This document shows positions 574-60,440 of a stretch of 64,000 nt of DNA, in pieces. The notes below the pieces were generated by a model. That model saw only the letters and a list, made by a program, of their open reading frames with translations, was not told the DNA's origin and made no database searches. Made by a program: the position numbers and the translations under genes. Positions within the stretch are counted from its first letter, which is position 1. Every line of letters begins with the position of its first letter. The DNA comes from an uncultured delta proteobacterium. Lineage in GTDB: Bacteria > Desulfobacterota > Desulfobacteria > Desulfobacterales > B30-G6. The stretch is from the NCBI GenBank assembly GCA_963842925.1, contig CAWJIL010000009.1:6244-70243 (forward strand), read 5' to 3'.

Positions 574-720
574 ATCAAAATTCCCTACACGCTTTGCACA
601 TCATTTAAATCCCAAATAACAAAATCCAAACTTATTTCAATCACTGGAAATTCGAATTTTTAAATTATTTGAACTTTGTTTTTTGATGCTTGTAAATTTT
701 TCGATCATGGACACAACAAT

Positions 721-864
721 AGAAGCTATCTCAAAAATAGGATTTTGGTTCAAAGTCAAGGCAGAATCAAGTTTTAATCCGCAGGAATACTGAAGTATTT
801 TGAGGAGTTGAAACGAGATTCCAACACAGAAATTGGGCCATAAAATTTTTTTGAGATAGCTTCT
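721..864 (+). repeat. RepD long imperfect hairpin, copy 1
   Basis: Perfect 17-bp outer stem agaagctatctcaaaaa / tttttgagatagcttct. The core closely matches 30181-30275. Confidence 0.8.
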
Positions 865-866
865 AC

Positions 867-2071: not shown

Positions 2072-2217
2072 TAGTGTCCGTCCAGAAATGATCTTTTCAC
2101 GCCCTGCCGGTGTTGGGCGCCATGATTTAACGCCTCAAAATAGCTCGCTATTCCTCCGGGTTAAATCTGACGCCCGCCTTGTCAGAACGCGAAAATCCCT
2201 ATTTCTGGAAGGACACT
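2072..2217. repeat. long imperfect hairpin forming the left boundary of an IR-bounded segment
   Basis: Arms tagtgtccgtccagaaat (2072-2089) and atttctggaaggacacta (2199-2216). 2072-2089 is a perfect 18-nt inverted repeat of 3322-3339. Confidence 0.7.
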
Positions 2218-2350
2218 AGTTAGCCGGGGCATATAGTGTCTTTCTGGATGCCGGATCGCGTCCGGCATGACAATAGATACCCTGTCGCTTGCTGCGGAGT
2301 AGTTCATTCACATCAAAAAAAAATTAAACCAGGAACCACCGGAGATCAGT

Positions 2351-2629
2351 ATGACAAATTACGCGTTAATATTGGGATGTATTTTAATCTTGGCTTTATT
2401 GACCCCAACCATGGCAAAGGCTGTTTCGCACGCCATGAACAAAAGACTGGCCAGAAAGCTGGCAAAAGGCCCTGTAGGCCTAATGCTGAAACATGATTTC
2501 AATTACGCCATGGAACTTTCCAAAATGGTCTCCGAAGGAGATCTCAGTCTCGCAGAAGTAACAAAGATTGCCGAGCATTGCCTGTGGAAAGCGGGGAAAT
2601 GGGATAAGAACCCCAATGTAAATCAATAG
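2351..2629 (+). CDS. small secreted hypothetical protein (92 aa)
   Basis: N-terminal signal-peptide-like segment (ALILGCILILALLTPTMAKA). Sits in an A+T-richer stretch. Confidence 0.45.
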   Translation: MTNYALILGCILILALLTPTMAKAVSHAMNKRLARKLAKGPVGLMLKHDFNYAMELSKMVSEGDLSLAEVTKIAEHCLWKAGKWDKNPNVNQ

Positions 2630-2639
2630 GAAAAATAAA

Positions 2640-3017
2640 ATGGTTAACAATATAAAACTCAAAAAGCTTACAAAAGCTCTGGCGGCACAAGAAACCGTGG
2701 ACAATACCCGTGATATCCTGATGGATTTTAATGTCCATATCATCGGGAAAATTGCCAAACACAAGGTTGATGAGATGAACGACAAAGCGTTCAGAAAATT
2801 TCTCAACACCTTGATACTTAGTCAGGATTCTATTGTTGCAGCCTGGCTTTTGGAACTCATTGCGAAAACCAATGAACCCATCGGATGCAAATACGATCCA
2901 GAGGACATTGAAAAATGGGTCAACGATCATACCAGGCACATCATGGCCGCCTGTGAAGAATTTGTTTTTAACATTGTCCAGGATAAAAGAAACAATGAAA
3001 AATATCCACAACATTGA
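2640..3017 (+). CDS. hypothetical protein (125 aa)
   Basis: ORF lies 10 nt after the previous stop on the same strand. No family recognised. Confidence 0.45.
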   Translation: MVNNIKLKKLTKALAAQETVDNTRDILMDFNVHIIGKIAKHKVDEMNDKAFRKFLNTLILSQDSIVAAWLLELIAKTNEPIGCKYDPEDIEKWVNDHTRHIMAACEEFVFNIVQDKRNNEKYPQH

Positions 3018-3223
3018 AACGCTGAAAACTGTGTTTTCACCCGCCGCCTGAAAGATATGGAATGTGAAACAAATTTCTCATCCCTGATAAAAATGCCGGT
3101 TTTATAGGCATTTATTTTCCCACCTTCCACACCTACGATACTGCGCATATATTTTTAACTTACTGTTATTATTTATCTTGTTATGACATGCAAGATATTG
3201 CATGATTCTTGCATTTTATTTTT

Positions 3224-3339
3224 AAATGAACTACCCCGCAGCAAGCTACGGGGTATCTATTGTCATGCCGGACGCGATAAGCCTGCCCCGGTAAGTAGTT
3301 GGCCGGGGGCATCCAGTTTATATTTCTGGACGGACACTA
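3224..3339. repeat. right-hand inverted repeat of the 2072-3339 segment
   Basis: 3224-3278 is the reverse complement of 2255-2310 with a few mismatches. 3322-3339 is a perfect reverse complement of 2072-2089. Confidence 0.75.
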
Positions 3340-3376
3340 AATAAAATCCTGTTAAAAAAATCGCACCACAATACAG

Positions 3377-3526
3377 ACGATTTCGCAAAAAATCAGAATT
3401 AGACGGTTTCGTAAAAAGTTCAAATTCAAGGCGTGCAAGTTTTGTAATCATGAGGCGTACTTATCGTACGTTGAATGACTACGAAATGCAGCACAACACA
3501 GAAGTTGGAATTTTTACGGGACCGTC
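3377..3526 (+). repeat. RepC long imperfect hairpin, copy 1
   Basis: gacggtttcgtaaaaag...tttttacgggaccgtc. Near-identical copies at 34003-34150 (+) and 41719-41868 (-). Confidence 0.85.
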
Positions 3527-3595
3527 AATACTGAGAACAAAAAAAAATCACTGCCATGCCGGGTGATAATTTTTAAAAATTCTATATGTCAGCTA

Positions 3596-5748: not shown

Positions 5749-5978
5749 GGGTTCGAGGGTGGCTGACGGCTATCAGCGGATAGCAGCATCACAGCATACA
5801 AAGGGTTCAAGGGTCCGAGGGTGATACAAGGGTTCGAGGGTGGCTGACAGCTATGAGCAGATAGCAGCATCATAGCTTCCCAGCATACATTCAAGGGTCC
5901 GAGGGTGATACAAGGGTTCGAGGGTGGCTGACGGCTATGAGCAGATAGCAGCATCCTAGCCTCCCAGCACACAAAGGC
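5748..5978. repeat. tandem array, about 2.8 copies of an ~82-nt unit
   Basis: Units start at about 5748, 5829 and 5913 (aagggttcgagggtggctgacRgctatSagcRgatagcagcatc...). The array fills the whole convergent gap. Confidence 0.9.
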
Positions 5979-9060: not shown

Positions 9061-9352
9061 CCCGGGTCCAAAGGACCCGGCACTGATTCAACCCTATAAG
9101 GGTTAAAGTTAACCACATTCATCGTGTGATAAAATCTAAATCCGAATATCGAAATACGAAACAAATCCAAATATCAAATGTTCAAATGTTTCAAACAGAA
9201 TGCTTAAATTGGTATCGCCAAGGTCTTGTTTTGATCATTCGAATTTGGATCATTCGGTATTGTTTAGGATTTCGAATTTCGTGCTTCGGATTTAAGTAAA
9301 AAGCACCATCTGTATAGTCAAATTTCTCTGACCTGGCCCAAAGGACCCGGTT
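9061..9352 (+). repeat. RepA composite element, full-length reference copy
   Basis: Left end cccgggtccaaaggacccggcactgattcaaccctataaggg. Two related inverted arms rich in cgaaatN words. Right end ctctgacctggcccaaaggacccggtt. Confidence 0.85.
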
Positions 9353-13485: not shown

Positions 13486-13780
13486 CAGAGAATACAGAAG
13501 TCAGAAGCCAGGAGACAGAAGTCAGGAGACAGAAGAATTTGGATGTCGCTTCGCTCCTACAATTTTATCCGCCTTCGCAGAATACCACGGCATGCCCGTG
13601 GATGAATGCTAAAAATTAAGTTCATTGCTAGGGCGCGATGTCACCCCATGGAAAAGGCGAAGACAGGTATTTTAATCGCCCTTCTTTTTGACTGAGCCGA
13701 AGGCGAATCCATTATTCTGAATTCTGAATTCTGTCTCCTGTCTTCTGTATTCCCTTTCGAACTGTTTCAGGCAGAGCCAA
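13486..13780 (+). repeat. RepB element, long form with a nested insert
   Basis: cagaagN heptamer arm, ggatgtcgcttcgctcc, ~110-nt insert, gactgagccgaaggcgaatcc, then a ttctgaa heptamer arm. Confidence 0.85.
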
Positions 13781-15121: not shown

Positions 15122-15199
15122 AGGTTTTTAGACTGTTAGGCTATTAGGCTGTTAGACTGTTAGCGGCTAATATCTAATAGTCTAACAGCCTAAAAACCT
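15122..15199. repeat. word hairpin (ttag / ctaa words)
   Basis: aggtttttagactgttaggctattagg ... cctaatag..cagcctaaaaacct. Related to 19957-20065. Confidence 0.75.
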
Positions 15200-15211
15200 A
15201 AAAAGTTCCCT

Positions 15212-18738: not shown

Positions 18739-18920
18739 ACCCGGTTCCAAATGATCCAGCACTGATTCAACTCTCTCATGTTTTGATCATTCGAATTTGG
18801 ATCATTAGGTATTGTTTAGGATTTCGAATTTCGTGCTTCGGATTTGAGTAACCACCGCCATCGGCATAGCTAAATATCTCTAACCTGGCCCAAAGGACCC
18901 GGTTTTAAATGACGGAATAA
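18739..18920 (+). repeat. RepA partial copy (lacks the first arm)
   Basis: gatcattcgaatttggatcattaggtattgtttaggatttcgaatttcgtgcttcggattt ... ctctaacctggcccaaaggacccggtt. Confidence 0.85.
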
Positions 18921-19914: not shown

Positions 19915-19956
19915 GATGGCTTTCTAATTCATTCTTGCATGGATGTTAACACAAGA

Positions 19957-20065
19957 GGCTATTAGGCTGTTAGACTGTTAGGCGGCTAATAGTCTAATAG
20001 TCTAATAGCCTAAAAGCCTTCTGTATACTGTTAGGCGCCTAATAGTCTAATAGCCTAAATGCCTT
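19957..20065. repeat. word hairpin (ttag / ctaa words)
   Basis: aggctattaggctgttagactgttaggcggctaatagtctaatagtctaatagcct... Confidence 0.75.
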
Positions 20066-20072
20066 CAGTTTT

Positions 20073-21113: not shown

Positions 21114-21481
21114 TTTTTTTGGTGTTTGGTGTTTTGTGTTTGGTAGCTACCAGCAGCCTGCCAGTAGCTAATGGCTGTTTTCCTCTTCCCCTTTTATCTT
21201 CTTTCCTTCATTCCTTCTGTCTTTCTGTTCGTTGAGAACGTTAGGATCGTTGAGATCGTTAAGAACGTTTTTTGTTCAATCCGTCATCCCGGCCAAGTTC
21301 CACGAAGTGGAAGGCGAGCCGGGATCCAGTCTCAGCAAATAGCAAAGGGCAGCATCCTAGCTTTACTGTTGTTAAGTGTTAGGTTTTAGGTGTTAAGTAG
21401 GCCTTGAGCTGATTGCTAATAGCAGCATCCCAGCCTCCCAGCATCCTAGCTTCCTAGCATTTTCAATCTCTTCCATCGGTA
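21114..21481. repeat. 368-nt low-complexity/hairpin spacer between the megasynthase and oleA
   Basis: ggtgttt words, cgttgaga/cgttaaga words, hairpin atcccggc..gccgggat, gttagg words, agcatcc/agcctcc words. Confidence 0.7.
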
Positions 21482-30154: not shown

Positions 30155-30305
30155 AGCCAACAAGCCAAAGTAAAAACCAGATTTTGTTCCAAGGTCAAGG
30201 CGGAGTCGAATTTCAATCCGCAGGAATACTATCGTATTTTGAGGAATTGAAATGAGATTCCAACATAGAGATTGGGACAAAAGATATTTTTAATTGGCTT
30301 GTTTA
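30155..30305 (+). repeat. RepD long imperfect hairpin, copy 2
   Basis: Core 30181-30275 matches 745-838. The outer stem differs (agccaacaagcc / ggcttgttt). Confidence 0.8.
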
Positions 30306-33954: not shown

Positions 33955-33996
33955 TTCGATGTTGGACGTTCGATGTTCGATGTTCGACGTTCATTT
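33955..33996. repeat. heptamer array (ttcgatg)x6
   Basis: ttcgatg ttggacg ttcgatg ttcgatg ttcgacg ttcattt. Confidence 0.9.
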
Positions 33997-34002
33997 TTTG
34001 AT

Positions 34003-34150
34003 GAACTCGTAAAAAGTCAAATTTAGACGGTTTTGTAAAAAGTTCAAATTCAAGGCGTGCAAATTTTGCTATCATGAGGCGTACTTACTGTACGTTGAAT
34101 GATGGCTAAATGCAGCACAACGCCGAAGTTGGGCTTTTTACGAAACCGTC
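34003..34150 (+). repeat. RepC copy 2
   Basis: See 3377-3526. It overlaps the spurious N-terminal extension of the glmM track ORF. Confidence 0.85.
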
Positions 34151-34175
34151 ATCTTTTAATCAGAGGATATTGTTT

Positions 34176-38615: not shown

Positions 38616-38659
38616 TAATATGTCTTGACCTTTAACAATAAAAAACAGGAATCCACAAT

Positions 38660-38890
38660 ATGCCAAAACAAACATTTGAAAAATCCATTCAGCAATTGGA
38701 AGAGATCGTCCAGGAACTCGAATCAGGTGACCTGCCCCTTGAAAAGGCCATTCATCGCTTTGAAGAAGGCATAACGCTTTCCAAGCGCTGTTCCAAAATG
38801 CTCGACGAAACTGAAAAAAAGATCTCTGTTCTCATTCGGGAAACCGATGACACGCTGTCTGAAAAACCCTTTGACACAGACATCTCCTAA
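38660..38890 (+). CDS. xseB: exodeoxyribonuclease VII small subunit
   Basis: FEKSIQQLEEIVQELESGDLPLEKAI is the canonical XseB motif. Confidence 0.88.
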   Translation: MPKQTFEKSIQQLEEIVQELESGDLPLEKAIHRFEEGITLSKRCSKMLDETEKKISVLIRETDDTLSEKPFDTDIS

Positions 38891-39833: not shown

Positions 39834-41714
39834 TTGAATATACTAGATAATATATCTTCCCCCCATGATTTGAAAAAGCTCTCCCGAAACAGTTTGAAAC
39901 GGTTGTCTGGAGAACTCCGCAAGCGCATCGTTGATGTTGTATCCCAAAAAGGGGGTCACCTCGCCTCCAGTCTGGGGACTGTGGAACTAAGCATTGCCCT
40001 CCATTACGTGTTTGACACACCCGAAGATAAAATTATCTGGGATGTCGGTCACCAGGCATACGCGCATAAAATCATCACCGGGCGAAATGACCGATTCGAA
40101 ACGATTCGGCAGTTTGGCGGTCTTTCGGGGTTTACCCGAAAAAACGAAAGTCCCTACGACACGTTTACAACCGGTCATAGCAGCACCTCCATCTCGGCAG
40201 GTCTCGGGATTGTGACGGCCAAACGTCTCAAAAAAGAAAAATCAAAGGTGATTGCCGTTATTGGTGACGGTTCCATGACCGCTGGTATTGCTTATGAAGC
40301 CCTGAATCAGACAGGCGGTTCACACAAGGACAAGGACCTGATCGTGATCCTGAACGACAACGAGATGTCCATATCCAAGAATGTGGGGGCCCTGTCTTCC
40401 CTTCTCAGTCGGACGTTTTCCCGTAAACGCCTTCAGGACTGGCGTAAAGAATTCGGTGTCTTTTTAAAATCGCTCCCCGGCGTTGGTGATGACATTTATC
40501 AGTTTGCCAAACGCTCAGAGGATTCCTTCAAAACCTTTGTAACCCCCGGCATGCTCTTTGAAGCCTTTAATTTTGAATATTTCGGCCCCATCAACGGCCA
40601 CAACATCGATCATCTCATCGATATTCTGAACAACATCCGATTTCGTGATGAGCCGGTTCTGCTGCATGTGGTGACCACCAAGGGCAAGGGCTACCTGCCG
40701 GCAGAAAAAAATCCAATCTATTTTCATGGATGCAGCAGTTTTGATGTCGACACCGGCACATGCGCGCCATCTGATATCGAAGTCCCCTCTTATACAGATG
40801 TTTTCGGCCAAACACTGCTGGCACTGGCAGAATCCAACGATAAGGTACTGGCTGTCACAGCAGCCATGCCGCAAGGCACCGGTTTAGAGGCTTTTTCAGA
40901 TAAATTTCCGGATCGTTTCTTTGACGTGGGCATTGCTGAGCAGCATGGCGTCACCTTTGCAGCAGGGTTGGCAACCGAAGGTTTCAAACCGGTAGTCGCC
41001 ATCTATTCCACATTTCTGCAGCGGGCATTCGACCAGGTACTACATGATGTCTGTCTGGAGTCCCTTCCCGTGGTATTTGCCATCGACAGAGGAGGTATCG
41101 TGGGAGAGGATGGCCCTACCCACCAGGGCGTTTTTGATTACGCTTATTTACGCTGTCTGCCCAACATGGTTGTCATGGCACCTAAAGACGAGGAGGAGCT
41201 TCGCCATATGCTTAAGACGGCCATATCTCATGACGGCCCCATTGCCTTACGCTATCCCCGTGGAACCGGCGTCGGTGCATCGCTGACCGCGCCCCTTGCC
41301 AACCTTCCCATCGGTAAAGGGGAAGTTCTGAAACAGGGCGATGACCTGCTCATTCTTGCCGTGGGAAGCAGTGTCAACGAATCCCTGTCAGCCCGCAGGC
41401 AACTAAAGACGGAGGGTGTCCATGCAACGGTCGTCAACTGCCGGTTTATCAAACCATTGGACACGGAATTGATAGGGGAACTTTCCAGACGTATCAAGAA
41501 GGTCATCACGGTCGAAGAAAATGTACTTCATGGCGGTTTTGGCAGCGCTGTTCTCGAATGCCTGAACAATCAGGATATCGTCGATGTCCATGTCAAACGC
41601 ATCGGTATCGCAGACCGCTTTGTGGAACATGGTCCCCAAAAGAAATTGCGATCCGTCTATGGCGTGGATGCCACGGCCATTGTCAAGGCTGCAAAAGCGT
41701 TATTGAAGCAATAA
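39834..41714 (+). CDS. dxs: 1-deoxy-D-xylulose-5-phosphate synthase
   Basis: GHLASSLG, GHQAY.HK, the TPP motif GDGSMTAG and the full transketolase-like layout. The track start is a TTG, so the exact start is uncertain. Confidence 0.93.
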   Translation: MNILDNISSPHDLKKLSRNSLKRLSGELRKRIVDVVSQKGGHLASSLGTVELSIALHYVFDTPEDKIIWDVGHQAYAHKIITGRNDRFETIRQFGGLSGFTRKNESPYDTFTTGHSSTSISAGLGIVTAKRLKKEKSKVIAVIGDGSMTAGIAYEALNQTGGSHKDKDLIVILNDNEMSISKNVGALSSLLSRTFSRKRLQDWRKEFGVFLKSLPGVGDDIYQFAKRSEDSFKTFVTPGMLFEAFNFEYFGPINGHNIDHLIDILNNIRFRDEPVLLHVVTTKGKGYLPAEKNPIYFHGCSSFDVDTGTCAPSDIEVPSYTDVFGQTLLALAESNDKVLAVTAAMPQGTGLEAFSDKFPDRFFDVGIAEQHGVTFAAGLATEGFKPVVAIYSTFLQRAFDQVLHDVCLESLPVVFAIDRGGIVGEDGPTHQGVFDYAYLRCLPNMVVMAPKDEEELRHMLKTAISHDGPIALRYPRGTGVGASLTAPLANLPIGKGEVLKQGDDLLILAVGSSVNESLSARRQLKTEGVHATVVNCRFIKPLDTELIGELSRRIKKVITVEENVLHGGFGSAVLECLNNQDIVDVHVKRIGIADRFVEHGPQKKLRSVYGVDATAIVKAAKALLKQ

Positions 41715-41718
41715 GCTT

Positions 41719-41868
41719 GACGGTTTCGTAAAAAGTCCAACTTCGGCGTTGTGCTGCATTTCGCTATCATTCAACGTACAGTAAGTACGCCTCATGATAA
41801 CAAAATTTGCACGCCTTGAATTTGAATTTTTTACAAAACCGTCTAAACTGGACTTTTTACGAGTTCGT
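41719..41868 (-). repeat. RepC copy 3 (inverted)
   Basis: The reverse complement matches 34003-34150 almost base for base. Confidence 0.85.
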
Positions 41869-41892
41869 CAAGCTTTAAGCTGTAAGCTGCAT

Positions 41893-41940
41893 ATCGCTTA
41901 ATGCTTACAGCTTATGGCTTATCGCTTAAAGCTTATGGCT
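41893..41940. repeat. heptamer array (NNNgctt)x7
   Basis: atcgctt aatgctt acagctt atggctt atcgctt aaagctt atggct. The last word supplies the tlyA ATG. Confidence 0.9.
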
Positions 41941-45269: not shown

Positions 45270-45384
45270 GTGGTGCTTTTCAAAACCACTGCCCACGGGA
45301 AACGCGAAAGTTGAGCTTTAAGCCATAAGCTTTAAGCTTGCTTAGAGCTCACAGCTTATAGCTATTTTCCATGAAAGGAACCCA

Positions 45385-45471
45385 TATGCCAAAACTAACA
45401 TTTGAAAAACCCATTCAGCAATTGGAAGAGATCGTCCAGGAACTCGAATCAGGTGATCTGCCCAATGATTG
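45385..45471 (+). pseudogene. duplicated 5' fragment of xseB (28-codon ORF)
   Basis: 45385-45463 differs from 38660-38738 at 3 of 79 positions (manual alignment), then diverges to a stop. Confidence 0.85.
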
Positions 45472-45589
45472 AAGCACCTCGCATCGACCGTAAGGAATTC
45501 TGCCTAATTTAGATACGCTCGGCTATCCACGCAGCAAGCCATGGGGAATGCACTCGCTGTTGCGGTTCAAAAATAGTGCCTGAACGGGT

Positions 45590-45722
45590 ATCTCCGAGGT
45601 CTTGTTTTGATCATTCGAATTTGGATCATTCAGTATTGTTTAGGATTTCGAATTTCGTGCTTCGGATTTAACTAACTACCGCCATCGACATAGGCAAATC
45701 TCTCTGACCTGGCCCAATAGAA
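45590..45722 (+). repeat. RepA partial copy
   Basis: ctccgaggtcttgttttgatcattcgaatttggatcattcagtattgtttaggatttcgaatttcgtgcttcggattt ... ctctgacctggcccaatag. Confidence 0.85.
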
Positions 45723-60271: not shown

Positions 60272-60440
60272 TTATAGCCCTCCTTCATTTAAGACCTCGT
60301 AAAAAATTAAACAGTCTTTTTACGGGTGTTTTAGGTTTGAAGTGTTAGGTTTCAGGTCATTAAATATTTCGATACAGCCTTATCATAAAACCTGAGAGCA
60401 ACACTGAAACCAACCAACTTCGATTTTTTATTCGAAATCA

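Follow-up and report, generated by a model that had tools for sequence, protein, structure and literature searches.

A 64,000-nt stretch of the genome of an uncultured delta proteobacterium (called the window below) contains copies of a long hairpin that fall into two subfamilies, RepC and RepD. What are these hairpins: structured RNAs, single-stranded DNA elements, or mobile elements of a more familiar kind? We conclude that they are very probably MITEs with a conserved folded core, which DDE transposases of the IS5 superfamily, encoded at other loci, would mobilize in trans. Together with their relatives in other genomes they form a new MITE superfamily of IS5/ISNCY-type elements, in which the hairpin core is unusually conserved and covarying.

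Copies in the window, anatomy and spread

The copies and associated features of the window are as follows (bit scores are from the covariance model described below).

3376-3526, plus strand: RepC copy C1, a full MITE (104 bits), with outer left terminal repeat (3376-3395), inner left repeat copy (3400-3419), conserved core (3426-3508) and right terminal repeat (3509-3526); flanking duplication AATACA (3370-3375) / AATACT (3527-3532)
34000-34150, plus strand: RepC copy C2 (107 bits), upstream of a glmM-like gene; flanks ATTTTTT (33993-33999) / ATCTTTT (34151-34157), which match at 6 of 7 positions
41719-41869, minus strand: RepC copy C3 (105 bits), in the dxs-tlyA spacer; the 6-bp target site AAGCTT is perfectly duplicated (41713-41718 and 41870-41875)
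720-865, plus strand: RepD copy D1 (88 bits), termini TAGAAGCTATCTCAAAAA...TTTTTGAGATAGCTTCTA, flanks TA only
30159-30303, plus strand: RepD copy D2 (92 bits), between two 23S rRNA intervening-sequence protein genes
2072-2218, minus strand: sixth copy, of a GC-richer subfamily (67.7 bits; RNA MFE −81 kcal/mol)
3322-3339, minus strand: extra terminal repeat TAGTGTCCGTCCAGAAAT, which closes a ~1.1-kb cassette (2235-3339) on its right
33958-33991, 41876-41935, 15122-15203, 19956-20068, 13487-13532 with 13721-13750, 5806-5973 and 21419-21459: tandem-unit arrays

All five RepC and RepD copies listed in the preliminary description are present, with boundaries shifted by 1 to 4 bases; the sixth, at 2072-2218 on the minus strand, had been overlooked and was found with the covariance model. 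The earlier structural account of the element stands as well; the target-site duplications had been missed. A pattern made of the loop motifs only (TCAAGGC...TTGA...CAACNNNGANNTTGG) matches the window at exactly the five RepC/RepD sites and matches none of 100 shuffles. The six copies lie 1.2-26 kb apart in the 64 kb, single and dispersed, in both orientations. D1 directly adjoins the stop codon of a minus-strand gene (867-1868) for an AraC-family regulator. The termini of D2 are altered to AACAAGCC...GGCTTGTT with complementarity kept, and those of the sixth copy (copy 6) read TAGTGTCC(G/T)TCCAGAAAT.

The window contains other repeats as well, and its intergenic regions are unusually rich in them. 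The cassette at 2235-3339 has long inverted ends (2235-2300 versus 3228-3339), a right terminus equal to the MITE/ISNCY insertion sequence (IS) repeat, and two small open reading frames (ORFs; 2351-2629 and 2640-3017) with no Pfam match; it is not itself a hairpin copy and looks like a related mobile unit, passenger carrying and nonautonomous. A short hairpin at 60290-60326, CCTCGTAAAAAATTAAACAGTCTTTTTACGGG, resembles a RepC terminal-repeat pair without the core, perhaps as a remnant or a footprint. Tandem arrays with units of 7-8 nt, arranged as imperfect palindromes (TTCGATG, AAGCTNNN, TAGGCTGT, CAGAAGT, and others), occupy many intergenic regions, and C2 and C3 adjoin such arrays. Other dispersed families, with repeats 40-150 nt long and no relation to RepC/RepD, include 9190-9341, 18742-18893, 45566-45717, and families D4-D6, D13, and D14. 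The start of an xseB-like gene is found twice, at 38658-38742 and 45384-45468 (94% identity, 6.7 kb apart).

The unit is non-coding and 125-155 bp long, with terminal inverted repeats of ~18-22 bp around a hairpin core of ~85 nt. In a gap-free alignment of 54 RepC copies from many genomes, taken from among the matches listed, the boundaries are sharp: conservation drops from >0.9 to a background of ~0.35 within ~2 nt at both ends. RepC units are ordered GAYGRWCTCGTAAAAAGTCC - GATTTA - (TA)GACGGTTTCGTAAAAAGTTC - AAAT - core - ACTTTTTACGAGACCGTC, and their terminal inverted repeats are GAYGRWCTCGTAAAAAGTCC / GGACTTTTTACGAGACCGTC. The RepD terminal inverted repeat is TAGAAGCYATCTCAAAAA plus its complement, and that of the copy-6 subfamily is the 18-nt TAGTGTCCNTCCAGAAAT. 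The direct repeat that had been noticed upstream of the RepC 5′ arm is real: the left terminal repeat occurs there a second time, outside the first. This outer repeat is usual in RepC, and forms with a single left repeat also exist.

A scan of species-representative genomes with the loop pattern yielded at least 117 stretches. Among the matches listed, four are due to chance and almost all stem from MAGs of Desulfobacterales or "Deltaproteobacteria"; Desulfosediminicola flagellatus, a MAG with the label Pseudobdellovibrionaceae (Bdellovibrionota), and an isolate of Marinilabilia salmonicolor (Bacteroidota) contain clear members too. The core pattern matched viral contigs four times, in each case by chance and without support from the covariance model, and a RepC copy had no blastn match in plasmid and phage collections. 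The family comprises several subfamilies whose stems differ while pairing is maintained, and the inner hairpin is common to subfamilies with different termini. Many copies sit at contig ends, so that these repeats explain contig breaks in the MAGs that carry them.

Target sites and probable partner insertion sequences

Direct repeats that flank RepC vary from copy to copy (e.g., AAGCTT, AACATT, AATAAT, and ACTGTT): of 46 copies, 24 have a perfect 6-mer and 30 a perfect repeat of 6 or 7 bp, and the target consensus is A-A-N-N-(T/A)-T. The Pseudobdellovibrionaceae-MAG subfamily and the TAGTGCC/TAGTGTCC subfamilies are arranged as TA-NN-[TAG...CTA]-NN-TA; of 70 short elements found by the copy-6 terminal repeat, 35 have the same NN on both sides and 21 the complete TANNTA hexamer. 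RepD copies have TA alone on each side, with no longer duplication. Subfamilies with TAG...CTA or TTG...CAA ends use AT-rich, partly palindromic hexamers (TA-NN-TA or AA-NN-TT) as targets, with duplication of 6 bp and occasionally 7.

An empty site is available for C3. Loci L118 and L119, from close relatives (TlyA 92% identity), have the dxs-tlyA spacer without C3 and read GCAATAAGCTCTAAGCC..., where the window reads GCAATAAGCTT[C3]AAGCTTTAAGC...; AAGCTC occupies the position of the window's AAGCTT[C3]AAGCTT. The same gene pair is separated by a different short spacer without C3 in L120, and the two genes abut in L121; no covariance-model match was found in the dxs-tlyA loci of L118 to L121. 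These spacers have repeats of their own: that of L120 holds an array with a different unit, and that of L119 (~905-1185) has a non-MITE insertion of ~250-280 nt in an AAGC-unit array, with a ~24-nt flanking duplication (TGTAAGCTNCTTATCGCTTAATGC). Nested insertions occur elsewhere in the family: in L022, a copy from another subfamily harbors a RepD-type copy in its apical loop. The loop of some RepC copies contains an additional hairpin of 38 nt.

Genomic context shows little preference for particular neighbors. Copies are intergenic except for 7 apparent overlaps with called ORFs, which we attribute to ORF over-extension. The 138 neighboring ORFs match 196 Pfam families, the top 25 of which are each found in ≤4 ORFs; among these top 25, none is a transposase, reverse transcriptase, Y1/HUH enzyme, or integrase family. 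Orientation relative to genes is unbiased (31 antisense-tandem, 22 sense-tandem, 18 convergent, and 12 divergent), a pattern that does not favor a role as RNA in connection with host transcription. Filled sites at orthologous positions have diverged at about the rate of their flanks (95.5% versus 88-92%; 94.8% versus 93-95%; 90% versus 92-95%), so individual insertions seem to be free of host-level constraint. Because copies drift like their flanks and their orientation is random, selection seems to act on the propagating source copies and not on each insertion for the sake of the host.

We scanned metagenome contigs with the 18-nt copy-6 terminus. It bounds ~70 short elements, mostly of 144-148 nt and with the hairpin core, as well as elements with other cargos and long elements of 1695 bp (L126) and 1694 bp (L169). 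The transposases of the latter (464-466 aa) reach 448 and 446 bits with the NCBIfam model NF033593 for the ISNCY family (cutoff, 325) and contain the Pfam domains DUF772 and DDE_Tnp_1. Homologues of this ISNCY transposase are very numerous, mostly on contigs of ~1.7-2 kb; IS copies from longer contigs measure 1702-1704 bp and have the same termini as copy 6 (ISNCY ISs include L242-L251). The autonomous counterpart is an ISNCY-family IS of ~1.7 kb with copy-6 termini and a transposase of 453-466 aa, which has ~20-31 nt of end sequence in common with the copy-6-type MITE. Perfect duplications flank L243 (TAATTA) and L244 (TAACTA) and are absent in 2 of 4 independent IS copies (L242 and L245), as well as in L126 and L169. 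Like copy 6, the ISNCY ISs have identical 18-nt termini, a common end of ~31 nt, and a TA-NN-TA target; unlike the MITEs, they are 1.7 kb long, encode a DUF772 plus DDE_Tnp_1 transposase, and lack the hairpin core, for which the covariance model found no match in any of the IS loci. They would also fit the ISDol1 group of ISNCY, whose members are 1.6-1.9 kb long with 6-7 bp direct repeats in ISfinder. ISDol1 was named from Desulfococcus oleovorans. It is a subgroup of ISNCY (PMC8147514).

Two kinds of arrangement accompany these elements. In L246 and L248-L251 (about 556-2500), the 1704-bp ISNCY IS stands head-to-tail with a short element of ~165-235 nt that lacks the core and has related termini; the outermost flanks of the pair carry a matching TAAC...ACTA signature, as if it had been inserted, or could move, as one unit. 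Short derivatives with the copy-6 terminus also occur: L133 328-375, with a length of 48 nt, is made up of nothing but the two repeats, partial-core forms are 87-98 nt long (e.g., TCAAGGCG joined to CAACGCCGATATCGCGG in L175), and others are found in L157, L194, and L241. The derivatives in these five loci are natural deletion mutants for tests of core function.

As for RepD, its terminus lies at the end of IS5-family remnants in viral contigs (L257 and L258), and this terminal repeat is what the remnants (~260-aa type, NF033580) and RepD have in common. An ORF in L257 ends 14 nt from the RepD terminus and matches positions 161-258 of NF033580 IS5-family (88.7 bits) and also DDE_Tnp_1; in L258, the terminus is followed by an ORF start, MDLTNEQWERI, which we take to be typical of the ~260-aa transposase group of the IS5 family. 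Only remnants with this terminus were found, in the viral contigs, and an intact partner was not seen in any RepD-carrying genome. The terminus on the remnants suggests that an IS5-family transposase of the ~260-aa type would move RepD, whose TA-only flanks presumably fit the 2-4 bp duplications of that IS5 subgroup.

For RepC, no IS with its termini was present in any fetched locus. In the ≥117 genome loci, searches for a transposase between distant terminal-repeat pairs or for 5′- and 3′-half elements returned only short, truncated, and nested copies; all-against-all clustering of 603 long ORFs from these loci revealed no multicopy transposase. Outside the IS loci, tblastn found no match to the ISNCY transposase, either in the window or in any of the genome loci, and the RepC terminal repeat had one unrelated match in viral contigs. 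We infer an ISNCY-like partner for RepC from the 2+NN+3 geometry of end and target, the 6-7 bp duplication, and the length and pattern of the terminus; the pattern common to RepC and the ISNCY-linked subfamily is T-A/T-G, then ~9 nt, then an A-run. Mobilization in trans by DDE transposases is likewise suggested by common termini, which in the copy-6 subfamily belong to an autonomous ISNCY IS.

Fold and covariation of the core

Each of the five RepC and RepD copies forms one long imperfect hairpin, with a z-score between −6.3 and −10.6 and an RNA MFE of −46 to −63 kcal/mol. Folds of the opposite strand are 9-21 kcal/mol less stable, and the strand gap is 4-8 kcal/mol with DNA folding parameters (three copies tested). 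A covariance model, R1, built from 45 diverse relatives scores the five window copies at 88-107 bits on the forward strand versus 13-20 bits on the reverse strand. Since the gap persists with DNA parameters, the polarity is real, yet it does not separate RNA from single-stranded DNA. RepC copies with perfect and with decayed duplications do not differ in fold stability (−61.2 versus −60.0 kcal/mol; p = 0.23).

We measured covariation in 45 nonredundant copies from other genomes, selected through their loop motifs. In this set, 93% of pair cells are paired, compared with 73% in column shuffles and ≤49% with slid partners; double-change cells number 263 versus 86 in shuffles, and compensatory change affects 19 of 31 pairs. 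Because these copies had been chosen by loop motifs, we repeated the count on 86 copies from loci fetched by the terminal repeat; these were then detected and aligned with R1, so that the alignment is fitted to the model, and gave 91% paired versus 66% in shuffles and ≤46% with slid partners. There were 580 double-change cells versus 183, with double changes in 26 of 31 pairs. The compensatory stem changes that had been reported between the subfamilies (cgtac/gtacg versus aatac/gtatt, and gtgc/gcac versus gaatc/gattc) are present and generalize to both sets.

Conservation is not confined to paired positions. In the 86-copy set, positions that are ≥90% conserved comprise, on the 5′ side, CAAGG and the AG that precedes the apical stem. 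Those on the 3′ side are ACGC..G and two G in the apical stem. The unpaired motifs kept across subfamilies are CAAGG, AGG/GA, and AACGCNGA (AACGC loop). They form asymmetric loops, with CAAGG opposite AACGCNGA and GCA or GA opposite GA; tandem G-A mismatches can be read from the sequences of one subfamily. The common architecture and conserved internal loops noticed at the outset therefore hold and extend to further subfamilies. G-U cells outnumber A-C cells by roughly 8:1 (166:18 in the 45-copy set and 230:32 in the 86-copy set), an excess much of which is due to four positions inherited by all subfamilies. The preliminary description had read polarity from mismatches that are G-T on one strand only; the G-U excess and the far weaker reverse strand argue for folding as a single strand.

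As grounds for giving up its own reading, that description had named recent identical duplicates of a MITE with target-site duplications. This largely applies: terminal inverted repeats, target-site duplications, an empty site, and termini in common with DDE-transposase ISs are all found, but the copies are not recent identical duplicates: they fall into several diverged subfamilies in which core pairing is kept. Because such diverged subfamilies retain the pairing, the structural signal still wants explanation.

Competing readings and the role of the core

One such explanation treats the elements as ordinary MITEs, whose arms are inverted repeats bound as duplex, or have been rehomogenized by template switching or gene conversion, so that covariation reflects two sites that coevolve. 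Long stem-loops are classic for MITEs (review, PMC3184786), both arms resemble the same parent-IS end over ~20-31 nt, termini vary between subfamilies in step with the transposases, and inserted copies show no visible constraint. We nevertheless consider this reading improbable. The parent ISs lack the core, which is thus no inherited pair of transposase sites; the asymmetric loops stay noncomplementary in all subfamilies, although homogenization would erase them; and one-sided changes mostly preserve wobble pairing on one strand, as the two G-U:A-C ratios indicate.

Could the hairpins instead be free-standing genes for structured small RNAs, with their own promoter, a product of ~130-170 nt, and loops that bind a protein or target? 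Strong covariation with conserved unpaired motifs, the G-U excess, a strand difference of 70-90 bits with the covariance model, and z-scores of −6 to −10 would all be expected of such genes. The inverted termini, target-site duplications, and empty site speak against a stand-alone RNA, as do termini in common with transposase-encoding ISs, random orientation and neighbors, and orthologous copies that drift as fast as their flanks. Scans for sigma-70-like promoters and simple terminators found nothing recurrent within the copies, hence no consistent promoter or terminator. The view that no known RNA family is involved agrees with our searches: Rfam at gathering thresholds gave no match in the whole window, and an E-value search (E up to 10) of the RepC copy at 3340-3560 gave a best E of 1.4-5.9, which is chance level. 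We therefore regard small-RNA genes as very unlikely.

We give hardly any credence to a single-strand DNA transposon or hairpin site (IS200/IS605-PATE, REP/RAYT, or attC), of which a tyrosine enzyme would recognize the folded strand: strand-specific folding with DNA parameters, conserved extrahelical and internal-loop bases, and the tandem G-A mismatches would suit it, but such systems lack target-site duplications and DDE-shared inverted repeats, both of which are present here, no Y1/HUH enzyme or integrase is among the top 25 neighbor Pfam families (138 ORFs), copies are dispersed singly with no cassette arrays, and 125-155 nt is longer than REPs. Other candidates failed on specific features. 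K-turns, hairpin ribozymes, SRP-like RNAs, and bridge RNAs were rejected on sequence grounds since their defining motifs are missing and the matching Rfam models are silent; a CsrA sponge, since GGA motifs are absent in RepC; and integron attC sites, since there are no arrays and the neighbors examined are ordinary genes. The family is thus not a member of Rfam, REP/RAYT, IS200/IS605, or attC groups, whose defining features were tested and failed.

Among known MITEs, the closest in general form are Correia/NEMIS (Neisseria), Nezha (cyanobacteria), and Chunjie (Geobacter), which resemble the present family in size, inverted repeats, intergenic location, high copy number, and empty and filled sites. 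Bacterial MITEs are 100-250 bp and noncoding, with IS-matching inverted repeats, direct repeats, and long stable stem-loops (PMC3184786). Unlike in those three, conservation here extends to the interior and holds for different subfamilies, phyla, and two transposase groups, while the stems change in a compensatory way; duplications of 6 bp arise at AANNTT or TANNTA, compared with 9 bp in Chunjie (PMC3184786). As a precedent for a MITE-like element whose fold covaries, bcr1 of the Bacillus cereus group comes closest; it is a mobile repeat of ~155 bp with 5-bp direct repeats, is reported to be transcribed, and shows compensatory changes that keep the RNA structure (PMC3184786). bcr1 is cruciform-like with two stem-loops and 5-bp repeats, whereas the present elements have one long hairpin, 6-bp duplications, and an identified parent IS family; bcr1 also differs in host phylum and sequence, and is reported as transcribed, while the family described here is known from sequence alone. 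In the literature that we searched, with incomplete coverage, we found no description of this family or of a link between MITEs and ISNCY.

Why, then, would such MITEs keep a folded core? We propose that active source copies depend on folding as a single strand and that the core persists for this reason. We tentatively prefer, with somewhat less than even confidence, a role at the RNA level: when cotranscribed, the compact hairpin would make insertions into intergenic regions and operon spacers tolerable, and it may be processed. A self-contained hairpin would limit harm to neighboring genes, so that insertions persist. A role at the DNA level strikes us as possible though rather unlikely; here a hairpin or cruciform would bring the two termini of the element, which is shorter than the DNA persistence length, together for the transposase, possibly with a host factor on the conserved bulges.

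The core recurs with the termini of two different transposase groups, with its pairs and asymmetric unpaired motifs kept. It is therefore conceivable, if doubtful, that the core is a portable functional single-strand module, of RNA or folded DNA, with protein-binding loops, which is combined with at least two groups of IS5-superfamily termini in at least three phyla and boosts mobilization or survival; it might enhance transposition in cis, offer a site to a host factor, or be processed into a small RNA. If this were true, the core would be a conserved "MITE engine" and not filler between two IS ends.

In annotation, the near-identical hairpins that occur by the hundreds in metagenomes of sulfate reducers and sediments can be labelled as IS5/ISNCY-type MITEs instead of riboswitch-like RNAs. 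Most MITEs conserve their termini only; here a covarying interior is conserved and is common to subfamilies with different transposases. If this conservation of the core reflects function, the family would be a tractable case for learning what, beyond two ends, makes nonautonomous elements succeed.
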